From Methanotrichaceae archaeon (GTDB lineage Archaea > Halobacteriota > Methanosarcinia > Methanotrichales > Methanotrichaceae): 64,000 nucleotides of DNA. Within the stretch, counting starts at the first letter, position 1. The number at the start of each line of letters is the position of its first letter. The notes below the pieces were generated by a model. The model did not search any database and had not been told where the DNA came from. It saw only the letters and a list, made by a program, of their open reading frames with translations. A program made the position numbers and the translations under genes. Shown here one piece after another: positions 12,464-49,527 of the stretch. The stretch is from positions 64,001 to 128,000 of the forward strand of contig CAWDLW010000008.1 of assembly GCA_963803145.1 (NCBI GenBank). Reading direction: 5' to 3'.

Positions 12464-12552
12464 TGGTCTTTCCTGAACGGCGCTAAACACCGATTTTCGG
12501 AATATTTCTTCCTAAAGGCGAATAGATATTGCACAAATATCCCTAGGAAGAG

Positions 12553-13428: not shown

Positions 13429-13512
13429 CCTTTATTTTTATCGACATAAATAATTGGACTTATCATATACACCGCTAGCATAAAGATAAAAATGAAAGCC
13501 ATAAGAGATGAA

Positions 13513-15048
13513 TTACTTTATGGACTTACGATAGTTTCCTTTTTTAAACTCTTTAAGCTTTTTATATTCTATTGATTTTTCAACAGCAGAATAAATTATA
13601 TCAGATCCGCCTAATATCCCTGATGTATCTATTAATTGAATCAGCAGTACTTTTAAAAATACACTTAATTTATAGTTTATTCGAGGAAGATCATCATCGC
13701 TAAACGAGTTTCTTCGATTGTTTTCGTCAAAATGTGTGTAGTAATTCCTTGTAGCTACTAATCTTTGAATGATTTTTTCTTCGCCATCGGGTTCATCATC
13801 TATAAGCATTTTAAACCATTTTAATTCTCCACGTCCACAATTGCTAAGCTCTTTTAATCTTGTAGTCAATGAAAATTCATTACTCATAGAAATTTTACTT
13901 TGGAAATTTTTAACCAAATATTCATATTTTTTTAATAATTCATCTTTTGTTATTGAAACACCATTTTCATTTGTTAGAGCTTTTATCAATTCTTCAGGAA
14001 CTGCATTAATTAGAGCATTTCTTATTGGCTTGAATTCACCTGTTTTTAAATATTTTCCCCCATAAACGCGCCTATGAAATGTCTCTATAGCTTGCATTAA
14101 AGTTAAAAAGTATATATGTGGATTCATTGATGGATTGTAAAAGGTTAAAAAGAACAAATCAATAACTGGTGCGATTATATCAGTTTCCTTAAACCAATTA
14201 TTTAGGTCTTTAGTAACAAGTTTATTTGGAAACCTAATAAGATCCTGAAAAGTTGTCTCTATCATAAAGGGGTGAAGATCTTCAATAACTCTAGGATTAG
14301 GTATAGTGTAATAAATATTAACTAGCTCATCAAAAATATTACGATCAGGTTGATGTTTGATTTGAGCGGATAGTTTAATAGGATAAACTGGATAACCCAT
14401 AAGTAACGTCAATAGATTCCCTAGATCAATGATTCTTTTTTGGAACCATTCCCAACTTTGCTCATCCATCGGTTGAATACTTATATTTGATTGATATCTA
14501 ATTTCAACTTCAGTTTGAAGATCGCCTAGAGAATTATGAATGGAAGAGATATGTAAGGTAGATTTAATAGATTCTAAATCCATTTTATAATCTATTGTTT
14601 TACATTTTATGTTATACTCATCCTTATCCCATTTATACTCAAACTTATTATTTATCCACTTATCTAAATAAGTAAAATTTGCGCTTAGGAAAATAAACCT
14701 AATATCATTCTCTTGCAAGAAATGATTGCCAAAAAAGATATACTCGCAAATGAAAATAGATTTGCCACGTTTATTGTTGTAATTTAGTCCATTAGAAACT
14801 GAGCTTTCTTCGTATATTCTAGATAAACGATAAACTGTTACTTTTTTCCCTATATTAAGACAGCCTAACATTATATCGAATTCTCTAAGATCATAATGAT
14901 GCTTCTTACTAAAAACGCCGTTTAATTCGAGTTCTATATAGTTATGCTTGAATTTAATTATTCCACTTAGTGGTTCTTCATCTTTTCCAGGTAGCCACCA
15001 TGTTCCAGAATACTCAAACTCATCTAAGAGGTTAAATTCAATATCCAT
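13513..15048 (-). CDS. ApeA-like protein (ApeA N-terminal domain + HEPN), probable anti-viral RNase
   Basis: G.WWLP N-terminus, FLTLMQAIETFHR, HEPN RxxxxH motif RNYYTH. Confidence 0.85.
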   Translation of the reverse strand: MDIEFNLLDEFEYSGTWWLPGKDEEPLSGIIKFKHNYIELELNGVFSKKHHYDLREFDIMLGCLNIGKKVTVYRLSRIYEESSVSNGLNYNNKRGKSIFICEYIFFGNHFLQENDIRFIFLSANFTYLDKWINNKFEYKWDKDEYNIKCKTIDYKMDLESIKSTLHISSIHNSLGDLQTEVEIRYQSNISIQPMDEQSWEWFQKRIIDLGNLLTLLMGYPVYPIKLSAQIKHQPDRNIFDELVNIYYTIPNPRVIEDLHPFMIETTFQDLIRFPNKLVTKDLNNWFKETDIIAPVIDLFFLTFYNPSMNPHIYFLTLMQAIETFHRRVYGGKYLKTGEFKPIRNALINAVPEELIKALTNENGVSITKDELLKKYEYLVKNFQSKISMSNEFSLTTRLKELSNCGRGELKWFKMLIDDEPDGEEKIIQRLVATRNYYTHFDENNRRNSFSDDDLPRINYKLSVFLKVLLIQLIDTSGILGGSDIIYSAVEKSIEYKKLKEFKKGNYRKSIK

Positions 15049-15279
15049 GTTATATCGGTTGTAGAGGTATATGTTATATAAACGCTTTAAGGCTTGAAAG
15101 TTTTAAAAAATCCGATTGTTTATGCATTTTTTATCGGCAAAGATATTTATCCCTTATCTATCCCGAAGGGTGAAAAGCTCAAGCTGCAAGGCAACGTAGA
15201 AATCAAAAGCTTAAAGCGATGATGGCGGCGGACATAGTCTAAGGCCCGCTTTCCTCTTTCGTCATTCCATTATATGCAT

Positions 15280-16044
15280 CTAGCAATTTACATACTTTAT
15301 GGGATTTTGCGAATTTGCGGTTAGGTAATGTTTAACCGACTTATTTACATATTTGTCGCGTATTTCCTTTTTTGCGATATTACCATCAAATTCCCACCGT
15401 TGAGGATCATATGTGTAAAGCTCATTTGCATCTGGGCGCGTTTTATAAAGTGTCGCTTGGGTTCCGGCCTTATACCACTGTTTTATTTCATATACTTCTA
15501 CAACAATACCTTTGAAAACTGAAAATGCGTATTCTGCACATTCTCGCTTTGGGCCAATTACCCATACTCCGCGTGTAACATCGTACAATGAATCCGCATC
15601 CATTCCATATCGATATAGCTGGTTAATTCTGATAAGTATTGCACGTTCCGTAATATTGGCTTGGTCTTTTGGATCTATGATTTCCCCAATTGCGTTGGTT
15701 CCCATTCCATCGATGTGCATACGGTTTGGCTCTCCATGTTTCTTCGTGCCGGGTCCACGAATGAGGTTTGTGAGCGGTGGGATTCCGATTAAATCAATCG
15801 CGGCCGCCTCTATCATCTTAGCGGTTTCATCATCTAAGTTATAGCGGAGAAATTCCTTAATTGGTTCTTTCTTTTGCGCGCGGATTTCCTCAATTTTCGC
15901 AAGGGTTTTTGCGTTACGCTCTGTATTGTTATCAATTCGTGATTTTCTTCCTTTTCCTATATAGAAAACATTTCCATCTATCGGATTCCTAAAAAGGTAA
16001 ACATAGTAATCGGAATCCTTGGATACTGTTTCCACGCTAGCCAT
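15280..16044 (-). CDS. LEM-3-like GIY-YIG nuclease domain protein
   Basis: YYVYLFRNP..VFYIGKG..R, IEAAAID, LTN; C-terminal TRGVW..NPIKY domain. Confidence 0.85.
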   Translation of the reverse strand: MASVETVSKDSDYYVYLFRNPIDGNVFYIGKGRKSRIDNNTERNAKTLAKIEEIRAQKKEPIKEFLRYNLDDETAKMIEAAAIDLIGIPPLTNLIRGPGTKKHGEPNRMHIDGMGTNAIGEIIDPKDQANITERAILIRINQLYRYGMDADSLYDVTRGVWVIGPKRECAEYAFSVFKGIVVEVYEIKQWYKAGTQATLYKTRPDANELYTYDPQRWEFDGNIAKKEIRDKYVNKSVKHYLTANSQNPIKYVNC

Positions 16045-16929
16045 TTTGGCACCCCATAGACGCTGAAATTGCAGTCCTATTATATATTATCAGTGGTTCA
16101 TTGATCCGCTGTTATCAATTATATGTAATAGCATCAAAGAGCGAAAGGGTATTGTCTAAGGCCCGCTATCCTTTCATTACCCCTATTGGATTACCTTATT
16201 TAAATCTCCAATTTACCGCTAGCTGTAAGATAACTAACCGGGTGATATTCTCTATATCACCCGTCTATTTTCGGGCCTTAAATCGCATTATAGAGCCTTT
16301 TTATGCTCCATAAACCAACGCGGATTCCGCGCCGGTTTTACCAACCTTCACCGAAAACGCAACGATCGCGTTTTCTGAAGAAACCGCAGAGAAACCCGGC
16401 AATGTGGCAACGCCGGGCGGCGCGATACCAACCTTTTTTTTTTAGCTCACCCTATAATCTATCAAGCCTTTGCCGATCCTCGCTTATAGGGCATCCTACG
16501 CAACCTACTTCTAGACAATTTCTAAAGTGTTAGGCTGCAACCCTACCCTTTCAAAGTTGTACATACAAAACCCGTAAGTTCTATATATTACTTTATACAA
16601 CTTGCAGAGCTCCGCAAAATCGGGTAAACTACCCTTCTTCCTAACCCTTCATTCCAGCGCCTATAGACACAAATTCTGCAGCTCGCCTAATATCAATCGA
16701 TCATGGCGTCAGATGGCGATTTTTACAAAATACTTTCCAGAGCGCAAAGGATGCCTTGGTGATCGGAAAAGGTATTTATAAAATACCGCTTTGATTCGAA
16801 GGTACTCAAAAATGAAATGATTTATCTGTTGGTTGTATATACTCTAGTACAAATGGAGTCTTGATCATGTTACCAATTAGGGAATCATTTGGTGAAATAC
16901 TCAAACTAACTTAATTAACTGTTATTTGC

Positions 16930-17868
16930 CTAACTTTTAATTCTAATAATTTTTGCCATTTTAATTTTATCCATAGGCACTACATATAAGAAAGACTGTG
17001 GTGGCGCTGGCTTATGCTTTTCCACCATATAATAGTTCCCATCTTGCTGAGCAACTAGGATTAAGGTGTTGTTTGAAAGCTCTGTTGATGATTCATTTAG
17101 ATCTAATTTAATCTCATAACTCCCTGGAGCCCCCTCTATCAGCTTTATGGCGTCGTAGGCACCAATTTCATTAAAGATGGATGCGTTAATATAAAATAGA
17201 GAAATTAAGGTAAAGATTATAACAAAAATCATAAACTTACTCTCTTTCATTCTATCTAGTTCTAATGAAAAAATTGTTCCACATATACATAAAATAAGGG
17301 AGACAACAGCTAATAATATCAATATAAAATATGTACTAAAAATTTGTGCGATAACGTTCACAAACGCATTCGGTGTATCCCCCAAATGAAAAATTGCAAA
17401 TATATAATCAGTATAATCAAATATAATATATTTATAACTAGTCATACAATAATAAAAAATGAAATATGATAACATAATACTGAAATACAAAACAGTTTCA
17501 TCAAACATCCGCTCATTACGATAAATTGCTCTCCTTTTTTCCAAAGTAGTAGGGCGCATTTTGCCAAAAACATTCGATTTTATATTTAGAAAAAATTTAT
17601 TAAAATTTATAGGGTTTTTACCATAAATTCTACAAATTAAAATTATAATAGATGAAAATCCTATCATAACCACAATATTTATAATAATAATTGGTATTAA
17701 TCTTAATAAAAACTTTGTGTTCAATAAATCAGAATACTGATATGGGAAGGAAAATCTGCCAAAATAAGCATCACTATAAATTAATCCAAATAAATAGAAA
17801 AAGTAAGCTAACAAAGCAAAAATTATTGCGGGTTCTATTAGCCGGTTAATTGATTTCTGATGTGGCAT
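16930..17868 (-). CDS. Multi-pass membrane hypothetical protein
   Basis: About 5 hydrophobic segments; 312 aa ORF in very AT-rich DNA. Confidence 0.7.
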   Translation of the reverse strand: MPHQKSINRLIEPAIIFALLAYFFYLFGLIYSDAYFGRFSFPYQYSDLLNTKFLLRLIPIIIINIVVMIGFSSIIILICRIYGKNPINFNKFFLNIKSNVFGKMRPTTLEKRRAIYRNERMFDETVLYFSIMLSYFIFYYCMTSYKYIIFDYTDYIFAIFHLGDTPNAFVNVIAQIFSTYFILILLAVVSLILCICGTIFSLELDRMKESKFMIFVIIFTLISLFYINASIFNEIGAYDAIKLIEGAPGSYEIKLDLNESSTELSNNTLILVAQQDGNYYMVEKHKPAPPQSFLYVVPMDKIKMAKIIRIKS

Positions 17869-18241
17869 AATACCATTTATCCAAAACTTCGCCTCTATTT
17901 CGAGCTGTTGCTATAAAAAGGTTGAGCTAAATGCGATATATTTGGAGACTTCCAGCTACTGTTCACTTATCACTATGAAGTTTTAGAGCATCGGCCCAAG
18001 TGCATTCATTGGTCTTTCGCCAGATCGACAACTTATTAGATTCTTTCTGGCATAAAGTCCTCAGAATAACCAGCTTAACAAAGTGCGAGAATCTCATCCC
18101 CTGCACATATTGGTAAATACGGAATCGGCATCAATGGACTACGCCTTGAATAGTGCGGCCTGATGGTTACCAGTAAACCTATCATAACGCTCTTTTGGCG
18201 TTAATTTTATCCTGAAGCATCAACCATAGTGTTAAGATGCC

Positions 18242-25908: not shown

Positions 25909-26172
25909 AAGAGTTCCATTTAGGGTCTGCAGTTAAAAGCTCTTCGATAGAGTTCGCCTACAGAACTAGGAGTCTCTCGTATTCTCTTGATTAACCTTAT
26001 CTACAACATGCAAGTAGCAAGCCGTGGTAGATAGGTTCATATAGCGCATTAGTTTTCTATGATCAGAAATCAGAAGGCAGATGATAGATATGGCTCTTAT
26101 ATTAGCTATTTTACATAAATGAAAAACTTCACTTATTAAAGAGGCATATCTGTGTCTATTATATAACCATTA

Positions 26173-27570
26173 CTGTACTCTCCAAGTTTCTCACCAATTT
26201 ATAATCTCCATTCTATATCAAGTCATATCTTATATCCCTGTTCTTTGATTAGATAGAGTAAACCACTATCAGGAACTGGCAAATTAAAGTATTGTAATAC
26301 ATATATAAAGGCATCAATGAATGCTTGAGCCTTTATACTATCTATCATATCTCCAATCGTTCTATTTTGTTGATTTCTTTCCACTGGTGGGTTTTTGAGT
26401 TCATATAAAACGATAGCTGTCCAGACTGAGAAAACCATCTGAATAAATCTTTCAATTGATCGTTTTCCTCTTAATTGATAATCCTTGAATCCCAATTTTT
26501 GATTTGACTCTCTATGAGCAGTCTCAATATCCCACCTATCCTCATAAATAGAAAGGATTTCTACCAAAGATAGTGAACAATTGGTGCTAATAAAGTAGTT
26601 GGCGTCACCATTTTTCTTTTTCTTTGAGATGACTAGCTTTACTTTGCCAATCTTATCTAAGATGACTTCTTTTTCGATTGCATAATATACCTTCTTCTTG
26701 CCGCGAACTTGGACTGTAGTTCTTCTATAATAAATTTCGTCAATCTGATTTGCCAAGTCCCTGACCTGAAAGGACATATCCTTATTTATCCATACCTTTT
26801 TATCAGACTTAATTTCACAAACGACTTGATGACCTAAGTTCAGGCATTTAGTTATAAAATCAGCAGAAAACCACCAGCTGTCGAAAACAACATAAAGACT
26901 CAAGCCTTTTGGTATTTTTAAGGGCTCGATGATATCTTTATAAGCGATTTCTATTTTAGTCATGAAATCTTCACTGCTGTCTATCTCTTTAGTATACATT
27001 TTTGCTTTATGTGGTATAAATATACCTCTAGATTGGAGGACTGAGGTAACAAAGTTGTTACCCATAATATAGTCATCTTTGCAATGATCGTAAAACTTGC
27101 CCACGCCATCAGTACATTTCCCTTCCTTTTCATTATATGTATCGTCTATAATTAATAATATTTTGTCGCTTGCACTTAACTGAAGAGCTTCTATAAATAG
27201 ATCCGCACTGCGCTGAGCTACTTCGTTCTCATCCCAGATTGCATCACTAAAGAACCAATTATAGGAAGAGCGTGATTTCGTACATTCTCGATCCTTTGCC
27301 ATAGCATCACTAAGGTGTGCGATGGTCTTAGATTTATCACATACGCTCAGTGCTGAAATCATATCACAGAAAGAATTATAGCTCGGTATGGTGAATAAAT
27401 CTTTAAATTCTTTTAGAAATGGCTCTAACTGTAATGGAATCTTAACTAATTTGATCATGACATAGTAAAATACTTTTATAAATAAATCTATTTTGTATCA
27501 AGAATTAATTTTAATGGTAAAAGAAAATATAGCTATAAATATAAAGCTATGAAAAAGTTGGAGAGTACAG
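26173..27570 (-). mobile_element. Complete IS701/IS4-like insertion sequence
   Basis: TIR CTGTACTCTCCAA at both ends; TAACCATTA repeated at 26164-26172 and 27571-27579. Confidence 0.93.
26223..27458 (-). CDS. DDE transposase (IS701-like)
   Basis: IIDDT, FDSWW, YEDRWDIETAHR..QKLG. Confidence 0.92.
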   Translation of the reverse strand: MIKLVKIPLQLEPFLKEFKDLFTIPSYNSFCDMISALSVCDKSKTIAHLSDAMAKDRECTKSRSSYNWFFSDAIWDENEVAQRSADLFIEALQLSASDKILLIIDDTYNEKEGKCTDGVGKFYDHCKDDYIMGNNFVTSVLQSRGIFIPHKAKMYTKEIDSSEDFMTKIEIAYKDIIEPLKIPKGLSLYVVFDSWWFSADFITKCLNLGHQVVCEIKSDKKVWINKDMSFQVRDLANQIDEIYYRRTTVQVRGKKKVYYAIEKEVILDKIGKVKLVISKKKKNGDANYFISTNCSLSLVEILSIYEDRWDIETAHRESNQKLGFKDYQLRGKRSIERFIQMVFSVWTAIVLYELKNPPVERNQQNRTIGDMIDSIKAQAFIDAFIYVLQYFNLPVPDSGLLYLIKEQGYKI

Positions 27571-27740
27571 TAACCATTAAATCGAATATCATACCGCTTA
27601 GCTTAGGGAGGCTGGCTCTATCTCGCTTTAATATTCCTGATTATAGGCAAGAATCAAGTTATGTTCTCTGAAGCTCAATAAATCACCATCTTAAAATTCT
27701 GGCATAAGATATTTACCCGTTGGAAACCTACAGTATTGCT

Positions 27741-28172
27741 ATGATTTATTCAAAAATTACGTTTGCTATTCTTCTGGTGATATCTTTATCATTATCAGCA
27801 TCTATTGCGTCAGCTGTCATCGATAATGGCACTGTACAGTATTATGCAGATATCCATAACAGCATGATCAATAATGCTCCCCAGTTCGTCAAAAACCTTG
27901 CAGGCAATGCGACGATAGATTTGAACGTCACAATGAACAATGGGAGCATATACCATACGGGGTTTGAGATGAAAAACGCCCAGGTCAACAAGATTATTGG
28001 GGGCGGGGTCAGCGATCCCCTCGTTTCAATCAATGCCACTGAAGATGCCGTAAATAAAATCACGAGCTCAAATGATCCCCTAAGCGCTTTCATGCAGGAA
28101 ATGAGTAACGGTGGCATAGCCATTCAAATGCATGATCCTCACAGTGAAGGCAAAGGCTGTCCTTTTCTTTGA
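27741..28172 (+). CDS. Secreted hypothetical protein
   Basis: Signal peptide from ATG 27741. Confidence 0.65.
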   Translation: MIYSKITFAILLVISLSLSASIASAVIDNGTVQYYADIHNSMINNAPQFVKNLAGNATIDLNVTMNNGSIYHTGFEMKNAQVNKIIGGGVSDPLVSINATEDAVNKITSSNDPLSAFMQEMSNGGIAIQMHDPHSEGKGCPFL

Positions 28173-38558: not shown

Positions 38559-41500
38559 TCAAATTTTATTCTTGGGGGGGGTAATATTGCGCAGTAGCAT
38601 TGCAAGATCGTCAACTTTTACAGGCTTTGCGATGTAGTCGTCCGCGCCGGCTTCCAGGCACTTCTCACGATCGCCATCCATTGCGAAAGCCGTGATAGCT
38701 ACTACCTTCGGCCCATTTTCGGGCCAGAGCTTTCGTATCTCCCTGGTGGCAGTGAGTCCATCCATCTCTGGCATCTGTATATCCATGAATACTAGGTCGT
38801 AAGGCCGGATTTGAAGAGCTTGCAGCACTTCGCGGCCATCTGCAACAGCGTCGGGCCTGTACCCCAACCGTTTCAGCATCTCAACGAGAACCCTCTGGTT
38901 TGAAGGATTGTCTTCGGCCACAAGAATGCTCAGGGGCTTTTGGGCCGAGAGGTTCTCATACTCAACTCTATCCTTCTCATCTAAATCTAATTGCTTTCCT
39001 GGGATAGTCTCTGCCTGGATTGTGAATCTGAAAGTAGAGCCTTTGCCTTCATCGCTTTCTGCCCAGATCTCTCCACCCATAAGTTCAACAAGCTTCTTGC
39101 TTATGGCGAGTCCGAGTCCTGCGCCATCACGCTTGCGGCTTATTACATATTCAAGCTGCGTAAAGGGTAGGAAAAGTCTATCCATCTTATCCTGGGGCAT
39201 ACCTATGCCAGTATCCTTGGCTGCGAAGGTTATCTGGCGCTTATTGCCTTCGAGTGTTTTGGAGGAGACTGATACGGATATATCCCCAACATCAGTAAAC
39301 TTGACAGCATTACTAAGCAAATTGACTAGAACCTGTCGAAGCCTTCCGGGATCACTGATGATAGTATCTGGGGTCCCGTAGCTGACGGTATAAGCGAGGT
39401 TCAAGCCTTTTTTATCGGCCTGCACAGCCACCATATCCATAGACTCTTCGATGCAACGCCTGAGGCTGAGAGGCTGATGCTCCAGCGTTATCTTCTCCTT
39501 CTCTGCCCTGGAAAACTCAAGGATATCGCTGATGATTGATAGGAGAGCTTCACCACCCTTCCTGATTCTCTCAATATCCTCCTTCTGATCCTGTGTGAGA
39601 TTATCAGCCAGGAGAAGGCTAGAGAAACCGATCACTGCATTCAGGGGTGTCCTTAGCTCATGACTCATGTTTGCCAGGAAAGCTGCCTTGGCCTCGACCG
39701 CCGCTTCTGCAGCCTCCTTCGATCTTCTTAGTTCCTCTTCGGCCTTCTTGCGGTATGTGATATCCATAGTTGCGCAGGTTATGCCTTCAATCTCTCCCGT
39801 CGCATTACGCAAAGGCTCTACAGTAAGGTCGCCAAAGACTTCCACTCCATTGACCGTTACTCGGACCTCCGCTCGTTCTCCAATGCCGCGCTCCAATACC
39901 CTGCGCTTGATCTTGGTTAGTTCTGCGGCATCTTCTGGGGGGAAAATGTCTTCATCCGTCTTTCCAAGAATTATATCCGTGCTGAGCCCTGGAGTAGGAT
40001 TATACACCCAAGTATATCGAAGATCTCTATCCTGGTTGAATACCGCTATCGGAGAATTTTTAAGGCCAACCCTGAAGCGATCCTCGCTTTCTATCAGAGC
40101 CAGGTTGGCCTTCACAAGTTCAGCAGTCCTTGCCTGGACTCTCAGATCGAGTTCATCCTTTGCTTTGCGAAGCTCCTCCTCCATCTGCTTGCGCTCTGTG
40201 ATATCATGAGTTATGCCAAGGATCTGATGAACATTACCATTTTCATCGAGCAATGGAATGATGTTAATGATGATTACCTGTCCACCCATGCTTGCATGCC
40301 TAGTACGTTCAAGCATCTGAGGCGTCCTGAACTCTATAGCTTGCTTCAAGGCCGGAAGGTAAGAATCGATCAGCTCAGGCGGGAAGATCTCCTCATCTCT
40401 CCGCCCGACCACCTCCTGCTCAGAGCGGCCGATGATCTGAAGGCCCTTGGAATTGATGTATCGTATCCTTCTTTCTGAATCGTAGATCACAAGTACATTG
40501 GGAAAGCTATCTATGGCATCTTTGAACCTCTGCTCGCTCTTGTGCAATGCCTCCTCAGCCTCTTTTAGCTTCGTTAGGTCATTGCCGATAGCGAGAAGCT
40601 CGACCAGATTGCCCTGATCATCGTAGATGGGTTTGTTAGCCCAGGACATCCATACAAGCCTGCCATCTTTTCGAATATTTTGATGAGAATTCGTTGGATA
40701 ACTATCTGGACGATGCATCAAGTCTTCCGCCATCGCCGCAATGTCGTGACCTTCATCATCTTTTATTGGGATGATCGTACCAAGCGCTCTCTTGCCGATA
40801 ATCTCCTCGGGAGAATAGCCAAAGAATTGCAGCCCATACTGGTTCATAAAAGTGATACGCATATCCTTGTCAGCCAACAGAATGACGCTGCCCGAGCCTT
40901 CAACCAGTTGGCGATATTTCTCCTGGCTTTGTCGCAGCGCATCCTCGGCCCGCTTCCGCTCAGTGATATCCTTCATAGTAGCGACTACGCCCGCTATCTC
41001 GCCTTTGTTATCGTAGATCGGGGCAGCAGAGGCAAGGATTGTGAACTTTTTGTCAGAACCATGATCGGCGTCCATTTCGAGATCCCTGACCAATTCGCCT
41101 TTAATTGCCCTATTAAATGGTAGTTCTTCGCATCTGAAGGGCTCACCATTGGGAGAAACTATCGGCTTTATACGTTCGGCAAATGGACGAGTATAATCCT
41201 CCTCAGTCAACCTACTAATTTTCCTAGCTGCTTCATTCATATAGATGATATTTGCTGATTTATCGTATATCACAACGCCATCAGCTATCGATGAGAATGC
41301 TGCTTCCATTTCTCTGGCCTGGCGTTCGGCATTTTTTGCGATGTCTTCTGCTTTCAATTTTTCCAGCTTTATCTCTTCTTCCATGAGCTTACGTTCGGTT
41401 ATGTCCGTAAGGGTGATCACGCAGCCTATGATCCTGCCATTCGTACTCTTCAGAGGTCCGGCGTTCAGGAGCAAGTGAAACAGCATGCCGTCACTTCGCT

Positions 41501-42245
41501 TAAGACTTGCCTCGACCTGCAGTAGAACATCACCTCCCAGAGCCGACGAGATAGGATATAGCTTCTTGCCGACCGGGATCCGCAGGTCGAATAAGTCCTC
41601 AAAACTCTGGAGCGATGGATCACAGCCCAAGATCCTGAGTACAGCATTGCTGAAACGGATGACCTTTCCTCTCTCATCGCAGACTATGACTGCCTCAGCC
41701 GTCTGCTCGATGATGGAACGAGCCAGCTTCTCTGCAGCAACAATCTCTTCTTTTCGCTTCTGCTCTGTCAGGTCGGTGAAAACAACGCAAAAAGCTTCCT
41801 GGGATTCTGAAAGCTGGATGGAATTAATGGAGATATAAACAGGCATTATGCTTTCATCTTCAGCTTGAAGAGTCAGTTCACCCCTGCCGAGGCCCTCCTG
41901 AAGAACTCTGAATGATGCCTGATCAGACTGTGGGATGAAACGGTAGATGGACGAGCCTATCACTTTTTCCAGAGGCGACTTCGTCATATCTGCAAAATGG
42001 CGGTTGCAGTAGAGAATAGTTCCGTCTGAGGTCATGGTGACTGCGCCATCGTTCATGGCCTCAATGAGAATACGGTAGGCGCGATCTGCCCCTTCGAGAG
42101 TGAAAACCTGCTCACCTTGCGATCCGGAGATGACCAGAGCATCTACCTCACCACCTTTTATGGCTCGCAGAAGCTCCTGAGACTCAGCTAAACCTTTACG
42201 CAGCTCTTCGATCTCGGCTAAGAGTTCCTCATAAGATTCGGCCAT
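38559..42245 (-). CDS. Cytoplasmic multi-PAS hybrid histidine kinase (PAS x~6-HisKA-HATPase-REC)
   Basis: Repeated DITERK PAC ends, FLANMSHELRTP, NAVKF, DTGIG, GLGL, REC AEDN..MD..KP; no TM. Confidence 0.94.
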   Translation of the reverse strand: MAESYEELLAEIEELRKGLAESQELLRAIKGGEVDALVISGSQGEQVFTLEGADRAYRILIEAMNDGAVTMTSDGTILYCNRHFADMTKSPLEKVIGSSIYRFIPQSDQASFRVLQEGLGRGELTLQAEDESIMPVYISINSIQLSESQEAFCVVFTDLTEQKRKEEIVAAEKLARSIIEQTAEAVIVCDERGKVIRFSNAVLRILGCDPSLQSFEDLFDLRIPVGKKLYPISSALGGDVLLQVEASLKRSDGMLFHLLLNAGPLKSTNGRIIGCVITLTDITERKLMEEEIKLEKLKAEDIAKNAERQAREMEAAFSSIADGVVIYDKSANIIYMNEAARKISRLTEEDYTRPFAERIKPIVSPNGEPFRCEELPFNRAIKGELVRDLEMDADHGSDKKFTILASAAPIYDNKGEIAGVVATMKDITERKRAEDALRQSQEKYRQLVEGSGSVILLADKDMRITFMNQYGLQFFGYSPEEIIGKRALGTIIPIKDDEGHDIAAMAEDLMHRPDSYPTNSHQNIRKDGRLVWMSWANKPIYDDQGNLVELLAIGNDLTKLKEAEEALHKSEQRFKDAIDSFPNVLVIYDSERRIRYINSKGLQIIGRSEQEVVGRRDEEIFPPELIDSYLPALKQAIEFRTPQMLERTRHASMGGQVIIINIIPLLDENGNVHQILGITHDITERKQMEEELRKAKDELDLRVQARTAELVKANLALIESEDRFRVGLKNSPIAVFNQDRDLRYTWVYNPTPGLSTDIILGKTDEDIFPPEDAAELTKIKRRVLERGIGERAEVRVTVNGVEVFGDLTVEPLRNATGEIEGITCATMDITYRKKAEEELRRSKEAAEAAVEAKAAFLANMSHELRTPLNAVIGFSSLLLADNLTQDQKEDIERIRKGGEALLSIISDILEFSRAEKEKITLEHQPLSLRRCIEESMDMVAVQADKKGLNLAYTVSYGTPDTIISDPGRLRQVLVNLLSNAVKFTDVGDISVSVSSKTLEGNKRQITFAAKDTGIGMPQDKMDRLFLPFTQLEYVISRKRDGAGLGLAISKKLVELMGGEIWAESDEGKGSTFRFTIQAETIPGKQLDLDEKDRVEYENLSAQKPLSILVAEDNPSNQRVLVEMLKRLGYRPDAVADGREVLQALQIRPYDLVFMDIQMPEMDGLTATREIRKLWPENGPKVVAITAFAMDGDREKCLEAGADDYIAKPVKVDDLAMLLRNITPPKNKI

Positions 42246-42299
42246 AACGCTGCTCCATCTTCATGGGTTTGTGGAGTTTCATCTCTTGCCTAGGATTAA

Positions 42300-42698
42300 T
42301 TACTTTTGTTTCCCGATATGCAGGTCCAAGCCTACAAGGGCACGCTTTTTGTCTGACATGCTCCCAACCAATTTTCTCAGAGGCGGAGGAAGCTCTTTGA
42401 TGAGGGTTGGTACTGCAACAATCTGGCCTTCCTTGGCTAAGATAGGTTGCTGGTAGATATCGATTATATCGAGCTGGTACCGCCCAGGCATATTCGCCTC
42501 GCAGATCTTTATGGTGTTCTCAATTGCCAGGATGGATCTCGGACTCATGCCAGCAACGTAGAGATGCAGGACATACTTCTCAGTGCCCATTCTCTCCAGA
42601 GCTTTCTCGAACCGTTCAGACGCATCGGTTGATTTCTCTATCGAATCACTGTTTCCTGCCTTATCGCCATCATCCATTTGATCACCAATTAGTACCAC
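42300..42698 (-). CDS. kaiB: KaiB-family protein (third in operon)
   Basis: LHLYVAG, IDIYQQP.LA..QIVAVPTLIKELPPPLRKLVGSMS. Confidence 0.92.
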   Translation of the reverse strand: MVLIGDQMDDGDKAGNSDSIEKSTDASERFEKALERMGTEKYVLHLYVAGMSPRSILAIENTIKICEANMPGRYQLDIIDIYQQPILAKEGQIVAVPTLIKELPPPLRKLVGSMSDKKRALVGLDLHIGKQK

Positions 42699-42703
42699 GG
42701 CAT

Positions 42704-43057
42704 TCAGTTTGTTTTGGAGCAGATACCCAGGCCAGTCAGCACACGCTCTGTATTGGACATATTTCCTACAAGCCTTCTCAAAGGCAGAGGAGTCTCCTTG
42801 ATGAGGGTTGGTGCCGCTATGATCTGGTTTTCTCTGGCAAGGGCTGGACTCTGGCAGATATCGATTATATCAAGCCGGTAGTGCCCAGAGAGGTTCTTCT
42901 CGCATATATCCTCGATGTTCTCGATGGCCTGAACAGACTTGAAATTCATATTCGCTACGTAGAGATGCAAAACAAATATATCGGTGGTTTTGTTATTCAG
43001 AGTTTTTTCGGACTTGCTTTTATCAAGCCCATCTATAGGTCTATTTAATTCAACCAT
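42704..43057 (-). CDS. kaiB: KaiB-family protein (second in operon)
   Basis: LHLYVA, IDICQSPALA..QIIAAPTLIKETPLPLRRLVGNMS. Confidence 0.9.
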   Translation of the reverse strand: MVELNRPIDGLDKSKSEKTLNNKTTDIFVLHLYVANMNFKSVQAIENIEDICEKNLSGHYRLDIIDICQSPALARENQIIAAPTLIKETPLPLRRLVGNMSNTERVLTGLGICSKTN

Positions 43058-43079
43058 TGCATATCATCTTGAACCACCC

Positions 43080-43418
43080 TTAATCAGCAGGACGCAAATC
43101 GAGACCTATCAGCACCTTCTCGGTATTCGAGAGATCGCCTATGATCTTTTTGATTGGTGGAGGAAGCCTCCGTACAAGCGTAGGAATAGCGAGGATCTGG
43201 TCGCCCTTCGCGAGCTGTGGATGCTCCAGAAGATCGATGACCTCGATTGTGTACTTGCCCTTCAGATGCTCATCACTTATCTTCTTGAGATTTGCGAAGG
43301 CTGCCATGCTCTTCTTAGTCTGGCCTGCCACGTAGAGACGCAGGATGTAAATTTGGTCGTCCTGCAAGTAGCCGGAAGTTTCCATATCTTCTTCAGTACT
43401 TTCATCCATCGTATCCAT
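43080..43418 (-). CDS. kaiB: KaiB-family protein (first in operon, most canonical)
   Basis: [44 protein letters not shown]. Confidence 0.95.
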
Positions 43419-43424
43419 CCGAAT

Positions 43425-45161
43425 TTAAGAGGTGTCGGCCTTTCTGAGCCTGGCTATATCTCTTCTGCCATTCGCCATGGCCTTATTCCGTTGCTCATCC
43501 TCCGATAGGAGCTTACTTAGCTCATCCTCGCCGGTCTCGCAATCCAGGCGAAGCATATCCATCTGGGCCTTCAGAGACTGGAGCTTGCTCTCAAGCTCTC
43601 TCCTCCTGCGCTCGATTTCCTGCTGATTGGTAATAGCGTCTGCATTCTCCTTTGACTCCTGAGTAATGCGCTCAGTACCCATGAGCAGCCCTCCCTGCGG
43701 GCCAAGGTAGACATCCAGAATCTTCACACCATCATCTGTAATCTGGTACTCTCGTGTCTGGTTCGAGTGCTCCATGCCCCTTGATTTGACTATCGTCATT
43801 CCGCGGTTGCGTTCATTTCCATTATCGAACATGCGCAGCCATAGCCATGTATCCATCAGGGATGAGACGCTCTCGGATGTATGCCCTTTTGCCTCATCCT
43901 CTATCAGGCTGGTGCAGAAAGATGTTATACCCATCATCTTGAGGTAATCTATCAGCCTAGTAAGCATGAACCTGACATCGCCCGAAGTTCCCACGCTCAC
44001 CAGGTTCGAGGTTGGATCGATGACCACTGCATTTGGCTTGATCTCTTCGATCAGTTTGTGCATCCCCAGCAGGTGCATCTCAAGGCCATGGGCCATCGGC
44101 CGTCCGGAAAAGATGTGCAGTAGACCTGCATCCATCCACTTAGTGAGATTGATTCCGATCGAACTCATGTTGCGGCATATCTGGCTTGGCGACTCCTCGA
44201 AGGCAAAGTAAATGCATCGCTCGCCGCGGCTGCATGCAGCATCTACAAAATGGGCCGCGAAGCTGCTCTTGCCCGTTCCGGCAGTTCCCGTGAGAAGGAT
44301 GCTGCTTCCGCGGAAGAAGCCCTGGCCGCCCATCATCATATCAAGCCGCTCAATGCCTGAAGATATCCTCTCAGCGGAAGCGATATGGTCCAACCCGACA
44401 GATGTAATGGGCAGGACAGAGATGCCATCATCTTCTATCAGGAAAGGATACTCGTTTGTGCCATGCGAGGAGCCGCGGTACTTGATTATGCGCATCCTTC
44501 GGGTGGCAATCTGGTTCTCCATGCGGTTATCGAGGACTATAACACAGTCTGCGACGTACTCCTCAAGGCCATACCTGGTTAAAGTTTTCTCGCCCTTCTC
44601 ACCAGTAACAATGGCTGTTACTCCCTTGCTCTTCAGCCAGCGGAATAACCTTTGAAGCTCTGAGCGCAGAATAGCAGTGTTATGGAATCCTGAAAAGAGT
44701 ACCTCGATTGTATCTAAGACAACACGTTTTGCTCCAATGGCATCGATAGCGCTTCCTAACCGAATGAACAGCCCTTCTAGATCATAATCGCCCGTCTCCT
44801 CGATCTCACTTGCATCGATGTAGATGTAGTCGATGAGGATCTTGTTCATCTCCTGAAGCCTCTTGAGGTCAAAGCCCAATGAGCTGAAGTTTTTTGTAAG
44901 TTCATCAGGGGTTTCCTCGAAGGCCACGAAAACTCCAGGCTCATCGTACTGTATGGCGCCCTGAGCGAGAAACTGCATTGAGAGTAGTGTCTTTCCAGAT
45001 CCCGCGCTGCCGCAAACAAGTGTTGGGCGACCTTTTGGAAGACCGCCATCTGTGATCTCATCCAGGCCCTTTATGCCAGTTGGCGACTTTTCTAACCAAT
45101 TTGCATTAGAACTAATATCATTAACAGCTACGTCTGTTTCTGTCATGGACTTTACTTCCAT
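43425..45161 (-). CDS. kaiC: Double-domain KaiC ATPase with C-terminal coiled coil
   Basis: Walker A GSAGSGKT and GTAGTGKS, FEE twice, KYRGS/KSRGM, VSSLMDTW. Confidence 0.96.
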   Translation of the reverse strand: MEVKSMTETDVAVNDISSNANWLEKSPTGIKGLDEITDGGLPKGRPTLVCGSAGSGKTLLSMQFLAQGAIQYDEPGVFVAFEETPDELTKNFSSLGFDLKRLQEMNKILIDYIYIDASEIEETGDYDLEGLFIRLGSAIDAIGAKRVVLDTIEVLFSGFHNTAILRSELQRLFRWLKSKGVTAIVTGEKGEKTLTRYGLEEYVADCVIVLDNRMENQIATRRMRIIKYRGSSHGTNEYPFLIEDDGISVLPITSVGLDHIASAERISSGIERLDMMMGGQGFFRGSSILLTGTAGTGKSSFAAHFVDAACSRGERCIYFAFEESPSQICRNMSSIGINLTKWMDAGLLHIFSGRPMAHGLEMHLLGMHKLIEEIKPNAVVIDPTSNLVSVGTSGDVRFMLTRLIDYLKMMGITSFCTSLIEDEAKGHTSESVSSLMDTWLWLRMFDNGNERNRGMTIVKSRGMEHSNQTREYQITDDGVKILDVYLGPQGGLLMGTERITQESKENADAITNQQEIERRRRELESKLQSLKAQMDMLRLDCETGEDELSKLLSEDEQRNKAMANGRRDIARLRKADTS

Positions 45162-45409
45162 ATAAAGCAGCAGATGCTTAGGGCGTTTTTCACAATTAGC
45201 AACCTAAGCCCTGCATCTAACTTTCGCAATTGCGTAGACGGCGTTCGTGCTTATAAATCCGATCGTATTTATATAATATTTATCCATGAGAATTATAATG
45301 CAATCTCTCAACCACGCAGAGGATATCATCAGAAGCCAGAATGATCTGAATTTTGCATCACACTACATGGCCCGTGAAATCTAAGCATTCAAATTCCTGC
45401 CTATTTCAA

Positions 45410-45535
45410 AGGTGTGAAAATATTCTTCAAAACATTTTTCTGGACCCTCAATCCTCACAGGCTTGGCGATGTAATCATTCAGCCTGCCTCAAGACACTTT
45501 TCCTGGTCACCATCAAGGGGATAGGCTGTGATAGA
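45410..45535 (-). pseudogene. Degenerate fragment of a receiver-domain C-terminus
   Basis: Minus strand ITAYPLDGDQEKCLEAG / NDYIAKPVRIE, homologous to the ends of both kinases. Confidence 0.75.
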
Positions 45536-48521
45536 TTTTGCTAATAGTAGATACCGCCAAATACCATTTTTATTTCCTAAATTTTATTCTTGGGGGGGTA
45601 CTTGCTAAGAGTATCTGCCAGCTCATTTATCTTCACCGGTTTGCTGATATAATCATCCATACCAGCAGCAAGGCACTTTTCCCGATCACTATCAAGGGCA
45701 TAGGTCGTGATGGCTATAACTTTTGGTCCATTATTCGGCCAGAGCTGACGGATCTGTCTGGTGGCCTCGAAGCCATTCATCTCAGGCATTTTGATATCCA
45801 TCAACACGACATCGTATGGCTGGCGTTCCAGAGCTTGAATTACCTCTACTCCGGTGGCTGCCAGGTCTGCCCTATAGCCTAGCTTCCCAAGCATCCTCAG
45901 GGTCACCTTCTGGCTTGATACGTTATCCTCTGCCAGAAGGATTCGAAGAGGGCTAATGCTCGTCGGATTCGATGCTGAAGCCTGGTATTTGGCCTGGATG
46001 GGTCGTCCATCCAATACACTCGTGAGGGTATCGTATAGCTGTGCAGGCTTGATCGGCTTCTCCAGGCTGGCAGCAGAGAGATCCGGAGGAATATGCTGTC
46101 CTACGGATGTGAGCATAATTATGGGCAAATCCCTTTGGTTTCTGTGAATCGTCTCTGCCAGGGTTATACCATCCATATCAGGCATACCCACGTCCAGAAT
46201 GGCAACGTCTGGAATGATTCCCTTTTGAACCCGGTCTAGGACCTCGTAGCCGGATGAAGCGATGATAGGAATCATGCCCCAGGATTGAGTCTGACGGGCC
46301 AGGATTCTTCTGATGGTCTTGTTATCATCCACAATGAGAACGCTTCTTTTAGCTAGCTCGGGCTGAGGTCCAGCAGGAACTTTCCCATTTCCTGATTCGG
46401 AGTCAGCCATAGCCTTGATCGTGAAATGGAATGTCGAGCCCTTGCCCTCCTCGCTCTCAACCCAGATTCTGCCGCCCATAAGTTCAACAAGTTTTTTACT
46501 GATAGCAAGACCAAGCCCTGTGCCCTCGTTAAGCCTTGAGGTCGAGGTGTTGACCTGGCTGAATGGCTGGAAGAGCTTTCTCATCTGGTTTTGGGGTATG
46601 CCTATGCCGGTATCTTGAACAGCGAAATGGATCTCATGGCCTTCCTCATCGGGCTTCGAAGAGACAGAAATAACAACATCACCTTTATCAGTATATTTAA
46701 CAGCGTTACTGAGCAGATTAGCCAGTACCTGACGGAGCCTCCCTGAATCGGTGATGATTGTTTCAGGGACGTTGCTATCGATCGTATAGGCCAGATCGAG
46801 CCCCTTCTCAGCCGCCTTTGTAGACACCAGATCTAGGGACTCCTCAATGCGCTGACGAAGGTCGTTGGGATGAATCTCAAGCTCTATCTTCTCCTTCTCC
46901 ATCTTCGAGAAGTCAAGAATATCGTTGATCAGGGCCAGGAGTGCCTCGCCGTTCATCCTCATGGTATCAAGCCAGTCCTTGTACTCAGGCGACAAAGGCT
47001 CCTCAAGCAGAATGCTTGTGAAACCGATTATCGAGTTCATGGGCGTCCTAAGCTCATGGGACATGTTGGCCAGGAATGCTGCCTTTGCCCTGATTGCCTC
47101 TTCGGCGGCATCTTTCGCTGCCATAAGCTCCTCATTGGCTTTTAGTAGATCGGCAGTCCTTTCATCGACCCGAAGCTCTAACTCATCATGCGCTTTTTGC
47201 AGCGCCTCCTCGGCCTGCTTGCGCTCGGTGATGTCGCGGTTAACAGCAACGAAGCCGACTACCTTTCCCCCGGTATCACGTATAAGCATCGTCTTCGATT
47301 CAAAAGTGACGCGTTTTCCCGACCTGGTCGTATGCTCAATCTCAGCCGTGACCGATTCCGTTTCTTCCAGAGTCTTGGCCAATCGGGACCTCATTTCAGG
47401 ATCGAACTTCGAGCCGGTCACTTCGACGATGTTTCTTCCCAGGACTTCCTCCTCCTTCCACCCGTACACCCTTTCCGCCTCATGGTTCCAGGATGTAAGC
47501 CGCAATTGCTCGTCAGTAGAATAGATTACCTCCGTGATATTCGTGAGCAGATTGGCCTGGTACGTCAGGCGTTCTTCCGCTCGCTTGCGCTCTGTAATGT
47601 CAACGATCGAATTGAAGAGCACTTTCTCGCCATGTACAGTGCTGAGTTGTGAGGATAATATGCCAATCCACTCTTCACCATTCTTTCTCACAAAGGTGTA
47701 CTCTCGATTGTAGATCAAACCGTTTCGCTCAAGCTCAAGCGCCCCTTGAGTGCGTTCTTCTACATGCTTCCAGAGGTTGATTTCAAGTGTAGTTTTTCCG
47801 ATTGCTTCTTCACGGGAGAAACCCATCAACTCGCACCATCGATCGTTAACTTCCAGAATCAATCCGTCATAAAGACGTGTGATAGACATCGCTGCGGTGT
47901 TCCCATAGAATGCTTTCGAGAACTTTTCTTCCGAAAGGCGCAGCGCCTCCTCGGCCCGCTTTCGAACAGTCATTTCTTTCTCAAGATCCGCTTTGGAAGC
48001 GGTGACTGTTTTCAAATTGGCCGTCATCTGGTTGAAGGCCTTAGCTAGCTCACCGATCTCATCGCCCTTTCTTTCGACGATTGAATAATCGAGGTTGCCG
48101 GAGCCGATAACTCCTGCTCCTGCCTGAAGATTCGATATTGATGTTAGCGTGCGCCGATAAATCAGGAGGTAATCGGTAAGGAGAAATGCTATGAAGGCTC
48201 CAATAAGTGCAAAGATGAAAAGGTTATTTTGCTGCTTAGTCTGATCTGCCTGCTCGCCCAGCATCTGGGATAGCCGTGAAGCATCAAAGACCATTCCCTG
48301 GGTTTGGACTCCAATTCTGCTGCCCGAAACCTGAACAAATGTCATGTCAGCCGTATTGCTCTGAGCATTCGGCGTGCTCTCAGTTCTCGATACTATATCG
48401 CCAAATACTTCCTTCAATCGCTGCTGGCTGTTCTTGATATTATTGACAAGCACCTGCTGCTCAGGCTGATCAACAGTCAGATTCGAGATATCGGCTGAGA
48501 TCGAAGAATATAGTTAATCTC

Positions 48522-49049
48522 CTAGCTTTTTGCACTAAGAAATCGCTCCACCCAGGACTTTGAATATCCATCCTTTTTGGAATAAAATATTTCTAAAGCG
48601 CAATCTTGGCTAGCTATAATAGCTTCATCGAAATCAGTGTATTTGGCGATCTCTCTTTTGAAATCCTTCCAACCGAATTCTATAGGATTCAAATCTGGTG
48701 AATAGGGGATATTATAAATTAAGTGAATATCGATTTCCTCAGCTAGTTTTCTAAATTTCTTGGCCAAATGAATTCTAGCATTATCTAAAAGTATACAAAT
48801 TGGCCTCATAATATTATTATTTCTTATATTTTGAGCAAATGCCATCAACGCTTCCTTCTTAGAGGAGTTGGAAACCATAACCTCATCATTGCCATTTAAT
48901 GCTATAAATCCAAAAATAGTTCTTGATCTAACCTTTCCAGGTTTATAATTTATTAAATGAGTGTTTAAGACTCTACGTGTATTAGGGCGCTGTTGTAAAG
49001 AGCTTTCATCAAGAAATCCTATAACAGGATCAGTAACAGTGGTCAGCAC
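48522..49049 (-). CDS. IS630 transposase OrfB (DDE)
   Basis: FLDES, LDNARIH, PYSPDLNPIE.GW. Confidence 0.9.
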   Translation of the reverse strand: MLTTVTDPVIGFLDESSLQQRPNTRRVLNTHLINYKPGKVRSRTIFGFIALNGNDEVMVSNSSKKEALMAFAQNIRNNNIMRPICILLDNARIHLAKKFRKLAEEIDIHLIYNIPYSPDLNPIEFGWKDFKREIAKYTDFDEAIIASQDCALEIFYSKKDGYSKSWVERFLSAKS

Positions 49050-49527
49050 TGATTTTATCCTTTTTTAAAAAACTTTCTGCATCTGCAGGCCTCTTTTCAT
49101 TTCTGATGTATGGTTTCCCATACTTAACTTTTTTCACTACTCTTAAAATTCGCCAGCCATATTTATATGAAAAATCTATACCTCTTGTATCCCTTACATA
49201 TTTTAATACGTCTTTTATCGTCATTCCTTTGTCTTCAATTTCTTTAATAACTCTATCCCATTCATCAAGAGACATCTTTGGCTTTTTGCCATTTCTATTC
49301 TTTGGTGTCAATCCATTATAGCCTTGATTATTCCATCTGCTTAACCAATATTTTATTGTCCTCTCGCCCCTTTTTAAAATATCAGCTACCTCATATACGT
49401 TTTTCCCTTCATATAAATGTATTATTGCCAATAACCGTTCCTTAATCCTTAGATCAGTCTCTTTTTTATATAATTTATCAAGGTCTATCTTTGATATATG
49501 CCTAATTATTATAGGTTTTCTACCCAT
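49030..49527 (-). CDS. IS630 transposase OrfA (HTH)
   Basis: ERLLAI..G..EVA.IL..TI.YW..RWN..G..GL; overlaps OrfB near a T6A6 run. Confidence 0.88.
   Translation of the reverse strand: MGRKPIIIRHISKIDLDKLYKKETDLRIKERLLAIIHLYEGKNVYEVADILKRGERTIKYWLSRWNNQGYNGLTPKNRNGKKPKMSLDEWDRVIKEIEDKGMTIKDVLKYVRDTRGIDFSYKYGWRILRVVKKVKYGKPYIRNEKRPADAESFLKKDKISADHCY

Follow-up and report, generated by a model that had tools for sequence, protein, structure and literature searches.

The closest described counterpart of the operon reported here is the KaiBC hourglass of Rhodobacter sphaeroides, in which a KaiC of the kaiC2 subgroup with a C-terminal extension and two serine sites is phosphorylated independently of KaiA and the ATP-to-ADP ratio serves as the cue (10.1101/2022.11.28.518275). 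Our operon lies at positions 38559-45161 on the minus strand of a 64,000-nucleotide stretch of DNA from a Methanotrichaceae archaeon (the window), and it encodes a KaiC, three KaiB proteins (KaiB1, KaiB2 and KaiB3) and a hybrid histidine kinase with PAS domains. It is like the R. sphaeroides system (KaiC in structures 8dba and 8fwi, KaiB in 8fwj; same source) in having no KaiA, a Ser-Ser site and a C-terminal extension of KaiC, which is about 50 amino acids (aa) long in R. sphaeroides. There the coiled-coil extension joins two hexamers, as it may do here; and R. sphaeroides is a phototroph with one KaiB, whereas the window has three KaiBs of three types in a methanogenic archaeon with three such cassettes in its genome. 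A kaiC-kaiB-PAS/HK (histidine kinase) operon of the same order, presumed to have a single promoter, is in print for Rhodopseudomonas palustris and R. sphaeroides, with a single KaiB as compared to the three in the window (PMC4794148). On balance, we read the operon as one of three paralogous KaiA-independent, Rhodobacter-type KaiC-KaiB signalling cassettes, each of which ends in its own soluble PAS hybrid kinase, and we hold this reading, together with the mechanism set out below, to be modestly probable.

SasA, which relays clock output in cyanobacteria and starts with a KaiB-like (thioredoxin-fold) domain, is likewise a histidine kinase genetically tied to KaiC and KaiB. The window kinase instead begins with a helix and a PAS domain and, being a hybrid kinase, also carries a receiver domain. 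KidA, a cyanobacterial multi-PAS GGDEF-EAL protein, binds fold-switched KaiB by means of the PAS domains at its N-terminus, and outside cyanobacteria PAS genes are often co-operonic with kaiBC (PMC9478674). In KidA the N-terminal PAS region is the Kai-binding part, whereas for the N-terminal module of the window kinase we infer Kai binding only by this analogy.

KaiB in archaea has been described as rare, with four archaeal genera (PMC5520375). In the literature searched (supplementary files were outside the search) we found no description of KaiB genes conserved as a tandem pair, of a third KaiB or of the N-terminal module, and none of Kai proteins in Methanothrix or Methanosaeta. New here are the third KaiB, the triplication of the cassette and the methanogen host; the underlying cassette occurs widely and is known in part, the kaiC-kaiB-PAS/HK operon being in print. 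The main acetate-using methanogens belong to Methanotrichaceae. Very few functions have been assigned to Kai proteins beyond cyanobacteria and purple bacteria; in this family we now find a full KaiBC device of the Rhodobacter type together with its own kinase, three KaiB types in three cassettes form a natural series, and a second KaiB and a kinase module are conserved across many phyla, so that KaiA-less signalling and the role of the second and third KaiB become testable with a few purified proteins.

The operon encodes a Rhodobacter-type KaiC, three KaiBs and a soluble hybrid kinase

In the list of open reading frames (ORFs) of the window, we found five ORFs on the minus strand in the order KaiC, KaiB1, KaiB2, KaiB3 and kinase, separated by gaps of 6 base pairs (bp; KaiC-KaiB1), 22 bp (KaiB1-KaiB2), 5 bp (KaiB2-KaiB3) and 54 bp (KaiB3-kinase). 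The genes and the domains of the kinase are as follows.

45161..43425, minus strand: KaiC, two-domain, Rhodobacter/KaiC2 type, 578 aa (PF06745, NF006799, 8dba alignment, motifs)
43418..43080, minus strand: KaiB1, canonical-type, 112 aa, with IIGDLS (PF07689, NF006798, ground-state fold model)
43057..42704, minus strand: KaiB2, lineage-restricted offshoot of the KaiB3 type, 117 aa, with Asn for the Gly of VAG and Gly for the D91-equivalent (PF07689, alignments, dN/dS)
42698..42300, minus strand: KaiB3, second-KaiB subfamily, 132 aa, with an N-terminal extension carrying FExA(L), and LVGSMS (PF07689)
42245..38559, minus strand: soluble hybrid histidine kinase, 1228 aa, with six PAS, HisKA, HATPase_c and receiver domains
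41730..42233, minus strand: Kai-linked N-terminal module of the kinase (helix, GEVDALV, a stretch ending in YR, first PAS)
39498-39689, minus strand: HisKA, with the His in SHELRTP, residue 862
39012-39353, minus strand: HATPase_c (Pfam)
38598-38927, minus strand: receiver domain, with the Asp in DLVFMDIQMP

The start of KaiB3 is uncertain and is either GTG at 42698 (132 aa) or ATG at 42677. In the kinase, Pfam finds six PAS_4 stretches, HisKA, HATPase_c and Response_reg, and no KaiB-like domain beside these PAS, HisKA, HATPase_c and Response_reg matches. No transmembrane-like segment is present: the highest 19-residue Kyte-Doolittle mean is 1.02, as compared to 2.36 in the HAMP kinase encoded upstream. 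An earlier note, made from the letters of this DNA, had described a KaiC, three KaiBs and a multi-PAS hybrid kinase without transmembrane segments, co-oriented with short gaps, and the gaps, the Pfam matches and the hydropathy bear this description out.

The host genome is a bin that is 99.34% complete with 6.77% contamination, and it carries McrA. Across this genome we found no match to KaiA (PF07688) at E≤0.01, while the Synechococcus elongatus control does match; the absence of kaiA that had been noticed in the window therefore extends to the whole genome. A self-sustained KaiABC oscillator requires KaiA, which this genome lacks.

KaiC matches PF06745 in two stretches (390 bits) and the NCBIfam model NF006799 at 718.6 bits (cut-off 408), and the closest solved structure is R. 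sphaeroides 8dba at 604.9 bits, with KaiC residues 23-560 aligned. The Walker A motifs (GSAGSGKT at 51 and GTAGTGKS at 292) and the catalytic Glu pairs (FEET at 81 and FEES at 321) are present in this KaiC and in both of its paralogues. The motif VSSLMD is present as the earlier note had proposed for the phosphosite, and its Ser433 and Ser434 align with the EE of the S413E/S414E phosphomimetic chain 8fwi. The long C-terminal coiled coil of that note stands as an extension of about 75 aa, 44% of it charged, which the 8dba alignment enters (up to residue 560); the coiled coil itself is putative. Together, these alignments place the KaiC in the Rhodobacter/KaiC2 type, as had been suggested.

The host genome carries three paralogous cassettes under purifying selection

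When the host genome was searched with PF07689, we found nine KaiB genes in three groups of three, and PF06745 gives three two-domain KaiCs beside the KaiB groups. Two cassettes are on contig C8 and one is on C23. Each has the order KaiC, KaiB, KaiB, KaiB, PAS hybrid kinase, and the KaiB copies match by position across the cassettes (first with first, second with second, third with third). The three KaiCs group together in one clade (support 0.987), whose sister is the KaiC of a genome of the same genus. The kinases are 1228, 844 and 995 aa long and differ in PAS content; their His box and receiver Asp are intact in the window kinase and both paralogues, and none of the three cassettes has lost a catalytic or phospho-acceptor motif. 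No dedicated response regulator or Hpt gene after the kinase is conserved among the three. We also considered contamination of the bin as the origin of the third cassette; with two copies on one contig and a C23 copy that differs from both in sequence and flanks, it is no strain duplicate, though its place in this genome depends on binning.

Among the paralogues, the ratio of nonsynonymous to synonymous substitution (dN/dS) is 0.11-0.13 for KaiC, 0.13-0.25 for KaiB1, 0.26-0.48 for KaiB2 and 0.21-0.27 for KaiB3, at dS 0.26-0.66. None of the nine kaiB genes is disrupted, their dN/dS stays below 0.5 at dS 0.26-0.60, and the extra kaiB copies, for which decay would have spoken against the earlier proposal, show none (dN/dS 0.21-0.48). 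The genes of the cassettes are under purifying selection, without decay.

A module at the kinase N-terminus travels with kaiB

The pre-PAS part of the N-terminal module comprises residues 11-62 of the kinase (42060-42215). Over all loci, the module has as its consensus a helix RLEEAEETLRAI, then GEVDALVV, then G-QVFTL-GA--YR, then PAS. The remainder of the proteins that carry it varies and includes HisKA hybrid, HisKA_2 and HisKA_3 kinases, GGDEF-EAL and HD-GYP proteins and, by name, sigma-54 activators. In these alignments, the module is the only constant part of the effector.

To locate the module in its own genome, we used a profile of the 52 pre-PAS residues (E≤1) and found three module ORFs, all of them kai-linked kinases adjoining kaiB; dozens of other PAS proteins match the PAS part only. 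In the host order, the module is present in 14/105 genomes with 23 strong matches and one weak partial match, and 21 of the 23 are within about 270 bp of a PF07689 match, while the other two are beside a short or decayed KaiB-like ORF. In a sample of the phylum, the module is found in 21/401 genomes, all of which are among the 37 genomes with KaiB, and 28 of the 29 matches are inside a kai cluster. In a bacterial order, 11/251 genomes have the module, and all 11 matches are 48-154 bp after a KaiB match; six of these loci have a single KaiB and five have two, on contigs that are in some cases short. Since related genomes are not independent, these figures are counts and not statistics. The module profile was built from kai-linked proteins, and of the bacterial-order genomes only the centre genome G493 contributed to it, with locus L135 as one row. 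At L135 the relative of the module is on a multi-PAS GGDEF-EAL protein adjoining kaiBC, an architecture like that of KidA.

The co-occurrence of the kinase N-terminus with kaiBC, named in the earlier note as a check on its proposal, is thus near-strict in the host order, the phylum sample and the bacterial order, and no other feature is as tightly linked to kaiB as the module. The effector part changes while the module is constant, which is the pattern expected of interchangeable outputs on a common upstream device. Because the module also occurs at loci with a single KaiB, no variant KaiB is required for it. The strongest inference that these data allow is that the module may be the Kai-side connector of an interchangeable effector, which would fit the remark that PAS genes are often found in operons with kaiBC (PMC9478674).

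A predicted complex of KaiB3 with kinase residues 5-172 scored 0.23 as compared to a mark of 0.32, with no controls, and speaks neither for nor against binding. A match of PF24820 (Diguanyl_cycl_sensor) to the first PAS at 30.9 bits was dropped as a link to KidA because it is unspecific: in the own genome PF24820 matches other PAS proteins and not the kai-linked kinases, and the S. elongatus control is unmatched.

A four-gene cassette is widespread in archaea and bacteria

In the host order, KaiB is present in 18/105 genomes, and the usual layout is KaiC, a KaiB1-type, a KaiB3-type and a kinase that shares 53-80% identity with the window kinase over its first 170 residues. With a KaiB3-type profile we found at least 505 relatives in species-representative genomes, and 80 loci were kept for a survey. 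The counts that follow refer to loci with enough flank and are lower bounds, as the ORF caller drops ORFs at contig edges and sometimes over-extends starts. A module gene follows the KaiB3-type gene in at least 72/78 loci, a KaiB1-type gene precedes it in at least 69/77 and KaiC precedes it in at least 67/75; KaiC, KaiB1-type and module gene are all present in at least 60/74. By their titles, the archaeal loci belong to Methanosarcina, Methanoperedens, Methanobacterium and Bathyarchaeota, and the bacterial loci to Geobacteraceae, Desulfuromonadales, Methylococcaceae, Chloroflexales, Omnitrophota, Lentisphaerae, Planctomycetota and others. In Methanosarcina, the KaiB1-KaiB3-module cassette has a HisKA_2 effector. 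The picture from a metagenome scan was the same, with lower counts (all three parts at 17/28 loci) on contigs that are mostly short. KaiC, KaiB1, KaiB3 and module kinase form a four-gene cassette that is widespread in archaea and bacteria. It has the same order and short gaps as the window. It has two KaiBs, whereas the window adds KaiB2 between KaiB1 and KaiB3 and the host genome has the cassette three times. Three KaiB ORFs occur in 7/79 surveyed loci, and the extra copy is never of the KaiB2 type.

Some loci depart from this layout. Two module-bearing effector genes stand in a row after one KaiB pair at L083, L089, L123 and G221:C1:933449-935145, and in G198 and G247 a second module-bearing effector gene is divergent from kaiC, which suggests that several effectors share one Kai core. 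A genome of the same family (G008) has 14 KaiB and 6 module matches over contigs C10, C26, C58, C244, C292, C369 and C397, including strings of KaiC-KaiB-KaiC-KaiB-KaiB-kinase and a decayed KaiB remnant before the module kinase on C58. Relatives in the host order also carry a second type of Kai cassette (L040 7106-9141, L050 264-2266 and L059 6579-8579) with a KaiC 38-41% identical to the window KaiC, one divergent KaiB and a kinase that lacks the module; this second type is absent from the window's own genome.

The three KaiBs are of different types

All three KaiBs of the operon are above the PF07689 cut-off of 27 bits (KaiB1 96.3, KaiB2 83.0 and KaiB3 79.6 bits). In contrast, only KaiB1 passes the cut-off of 110 bits of the NCBIfam KaiB equivalog NF006798, at 113.9 bits, with KaiB2 at 80.0 and KaiB3 at 89.1 bits. 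Compared with R. sphaeroides KaiB, KaiB1 (99.8 bits) and KaiB3 (99.6 bits) are equally close, and KaiB2 scores 82.9 bits. KaiB1 is the most canonical of the three copies.

In KaiB, the changes G89A and D91R shift the protein to the KaiC-binding fold (PMC11665890, PMC9478674). The equivalents of Thermosynechococcus elongatus G89 and D91 are G105 and D107 in KaiB1 and G123 and D125 in KaiB3, and in KaiB2 the Gly is kept (G109) and Gly111 replaces the Asp. The earlier note had taken the Asp of IIGDLS as the mark of the fold-switching partner and had treated KaiB2 and KaiB3 as equivalent variants that lack it. By gapless alignment to 2qke, however, that Asp is at position 79, and the fold-switch residues are G89 and D91. 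The position-79 Asp is found in 41/41 KaiB1-type, 43/89 KaiB3-type and 0/16 KaiB2-type proteins, and is therefore no defining mark of the second KaiB. The view of KaiB1 as the canonical partner holds up on its NF006798 score and its ground-state model, and the argument from IIGDLS does not. The equivalence of KaiB2 and KaiB3 has to be given up, as KaiB3 is widespread and keeps G89 and D91, whereas KaiB2 is restricted and has Gly for D91.

In KaiB3-type proteins, the G89-equivalent is kept in 88/89 and the D91-equivalent in 85/89, and the N-terminal extension has conserved F (76/89), E (78/89) and A (80/89). Mean column identity is 74% among KaiB1-type (n=41 sequences past filters) and 58% among KaiB3-type proteins (n=89). 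KaiB1 and KaiB3 belong to two old KaiB subfamilies that travel with KaiC and a kinase-type effector.

Within the same cassette, KaiB2 is 52-64% identical to KaiB3 and 37-40% identical to KaiB1, so that its origin is in KaiB3. Similar proteins of 59-75% identity to KaiB2 are found in the protein collection on other contigs of metagenomes and metagenome-assembled genomes, one of them named Methanotrichaceae archaeon. In an alignment of 16 rows (the three host paralogues and 13 collected proteins), the Gly of the otherwise invariant VAG is replaced in all (Asn in 11, Asp in 4, Ser in 1) and Gly is at the D91-equivalent in 14/16. When the KaiB2-only alignment was searched against the contigs of species-representative genomes, none of the 168 pattern matches was a relative, and a metagenome scan with the KaiB2-type alignment kept 80 loci (≤60% identical), which are KaiB1-type or KaiB3-type genes, with no KaiB2-type among them. 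We considered KaiB2 as a decaying copy and rejected this on its dN/dS and its conservation in other records. Taken together, these comparisons indicate that KaiB2 is a lineage-restricted offshoot of KaiB3 that is older than the triplication and is maintained.

One collected protein, P0007 (a KaiB of 124 aa), has an N-terminal half like KaiB2 (LYVAN...) and a C-terminal half like KaiB3 (ELPPPISKLVGSMS...GLDL). It looks like a KaiB2/KaiB3 chimera, a pattern expected from a deletion between neighbouring genes.

An AlphaFold2 model of KaiB1, made from a KaiB1-only alignment, has the ground-state KaiB fold with a predicted local distance difference test score (pLDDT) of 76.6, and in Foldseek its template modelling (TM) scores are 0.76-0.88 to ground-state crystal structures as compared to 0.43-0.51 to fold-switched ones. 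The model of KaiB3 from a KaiB3-only alignment has a pLDDT of 59.2 with an uncertain C-terminal half, and, at this pLDDT, it is nearer to fold-switched KaiB (TMt 0.60-0.68) than to the ground state (0.38-0.45). That KaiB3 may lean to the fold-switched form is a lead and not a finding.

Weighing the readings of the cassette

The reading that we favour is that of a KaiA-independent KaiC-KaiB signalling cassette with its own kinase, and its mechanism would run as follows. On the model of the KaiBC hourglass of R. sphaeroides, KaiC would autophosphorylate on Ser433 and Ser434 with no need of KaiA, its A-loop being held exposed by the coiled-coil tail, and KaiB would bind the ADP-bound CI ring and drive dephosphorylation as the ATP/ADP ratio falls. 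The N-terminal module would then read the state of KaiB and KaiC, much as cyanobacterial KidA reads fold-switched KaiB with its PAS domains, and would set the output of the kinase and its phosphorelay, with the other PAS domains adding further signals. More tentatively, KaiB1 may be a slow fold switcher that is stable in the ground state; KaiB3, with its N-terminal extension, and KaiB2, with its D91 to Gly change, may lean to the KaiC-binding fold and tune the speed or the duration of the KaiB ring; and the three cassettes, with their different PAS arrays, may be three parallel channels.

Several points weigh against this reading. The timer function is carried over from a bacterial phototroph to a dark-living methanogen without an obvious daily ATP cycle, and the third cassette, on C23, is assigned to the genome by binning only, in a bin with 6.77% contamination. 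One orphan module protein in the phylum sample is far from any KaiB (G471:C1). In a mirror-tree comparison, a weak test, of 54 cassettes (of 57 with all four parts, after removal of duplicates), the partial correlation of module and KaiB3 given KaiC is 0.05 and was reached by 118/500 permutations, and that of module and KaiB1 is only weakly higher at 0.18, reached by 9/500 permutations. Among the best 120 of 1476 matches of the module profile there is no cyanobacterial name that would point to homology with KidA, and the KaiB3 model is of low confidence (pLDDT 59.2).

A further-reaching version of the favoured reading would have the three KaiBs split the fold-switch cycle, with KaiB1 as a slow ground-state timer, KaiB3, with an N-terminal helix of its own, as a nucleator or adaptor that leans to the switched fold and KaiB2 as a constitutively KaiC-competent form that sets the delay or threshold, in three insulated hourglasses that time energy supply. 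We consider this version decidedly unlikely. If it were true, three parallel hourglasses would time how long ATP/ADP stays up or down (for example, in feast and famine on acetate), and the methanogen would be the first archaeon, and the first case of dark, non-phototrophic life, with a working Kai timer.

The adaptor scheme of the earlier note would make KaiB1 the fold-switching regulator and have KaiB2 and KaiB3, seated on KaiC, grip the N-terminal helix of the kinase, so that together they replace SasA. We regard it as unlikely, while giving it serious weight. KaiB3 is always directly before the module gene, its conserved N-terminal extension could pair with the kinase helix, and its model leans, with low confidence, to the KaiC-binding fold; KaiB2 is without the D91-equivalent (Gly in 14/16), a residue whose mutation stabilises fold-switched cyanobacterial KaiB (PMC11665890, PMC9478674). 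However, the module adjoins a single KaiB in 6 of the 11 genomes of the bacterial order, the mirror-tree comparison gives no co-variation with the module that is specific to KaiB3, and the Asp by which the copies had been told apart differs from the fold-switch Asp and is present in 43/89 KaiB3-type proteins, a type that itself keeps G89 (88/89) and D91 (85/89). Of the docking idea, the co-occurrence of the kinase N-terminus with kaiB stands, while the single-KaiB loci and the mirror-tree result speak against the adaptor part; the likeness to a split SasA is an analogy to a kinase that, in this operon, has no KaiB-like domain. The adaptor mechanism is thus possible and partly supported but has less support than the favoured reading. 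In cyanobacteria the clock receives input from CikA, and the multi-PAS kinase could in the same way be an input that senses redox, ligands or energy and acts on KaiC and KaiB; or the whole could be a steady-state stress or energy switch without time-keeping, as proposed for the KaiC homologues of Legionella and Pseudomonas. We give this reversed or timeless scheme a minor share of our belief, equal to that of the adaptor scheme. Six PAS domains and PAS arrays that differ among the three cassettes fit sensing, the cassettes share no dedicated response regulator or Hpt gene behind the kinase, and stress roles have been reported for KaiC homologues and a neighbouring kinase (10.1101/2022.01.26.477890). 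The relatives speak against it, as their effector part changes while the Kai-side module is constant, which is the pattern of interchangeable outputs.

It is also conceivable, but very unlikely in our judgement, that the extra KaiBs and cassettes are recent duplicates without separate function. This would agree with the single clade formed by the three KaiCs within the lineage, with the dN/dS of KaiB2 being the highest of the cassette genes (0.26-0.48) and with the decayed kaiB copies in relatives. In contrast, the intactness and constraint of all nine kaiB genes (dN/dS below 0.5 at dS 0.26-0.60) and the positional match of the KaiBs across the three cassettes argue against it, and KaiB2-type proteins at 59-75% identity occur elsewhere with the same hallmark residues, so that the type is older than the triplication and maintained.

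Surroundings of the operon

Among public sequencing runs, no RNA run is listed for the locus, and two DNA runs of one study are listed with shares of 0.10 and 0.05. By eye, we noticed a TATA-like AT-rich stretch, ATAAATATTATATAAATA, at 45262-45285 on the minus strand, about 105-120 bp upstream of the kaiC start, which may be the archaeal promoter of the operon. Between the upstream kinase and kaiC, at 45451-45532, there are 83 bp that are 77% identical to the 3' coding end (the receiver tail) of the upstream HAMP-PAS kinase and that are interrupted by a stop and a frame change; this stretch looks like what a duplication or recombination event has left at the edge of the cassette. The 3' ends of the two kinase genes are 71% identical over 296 bp.

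Adjacent ORFs at 48522-49527 on the minus strand match HTH_23/HTH_32 and then DDE_3 and look like a split IS630-type transposase. This putative transposase is directly upstream of the HAMP-PAS-kinase-REC-REC gene at 45577-48453. Elsewhere in the window, the GC content is 0.34-0.35 at 12001-18000 and 26001-28000, as compared to about 0.45-0.50 in the remainder, and these low-GC stretches are possibly a foreign island.

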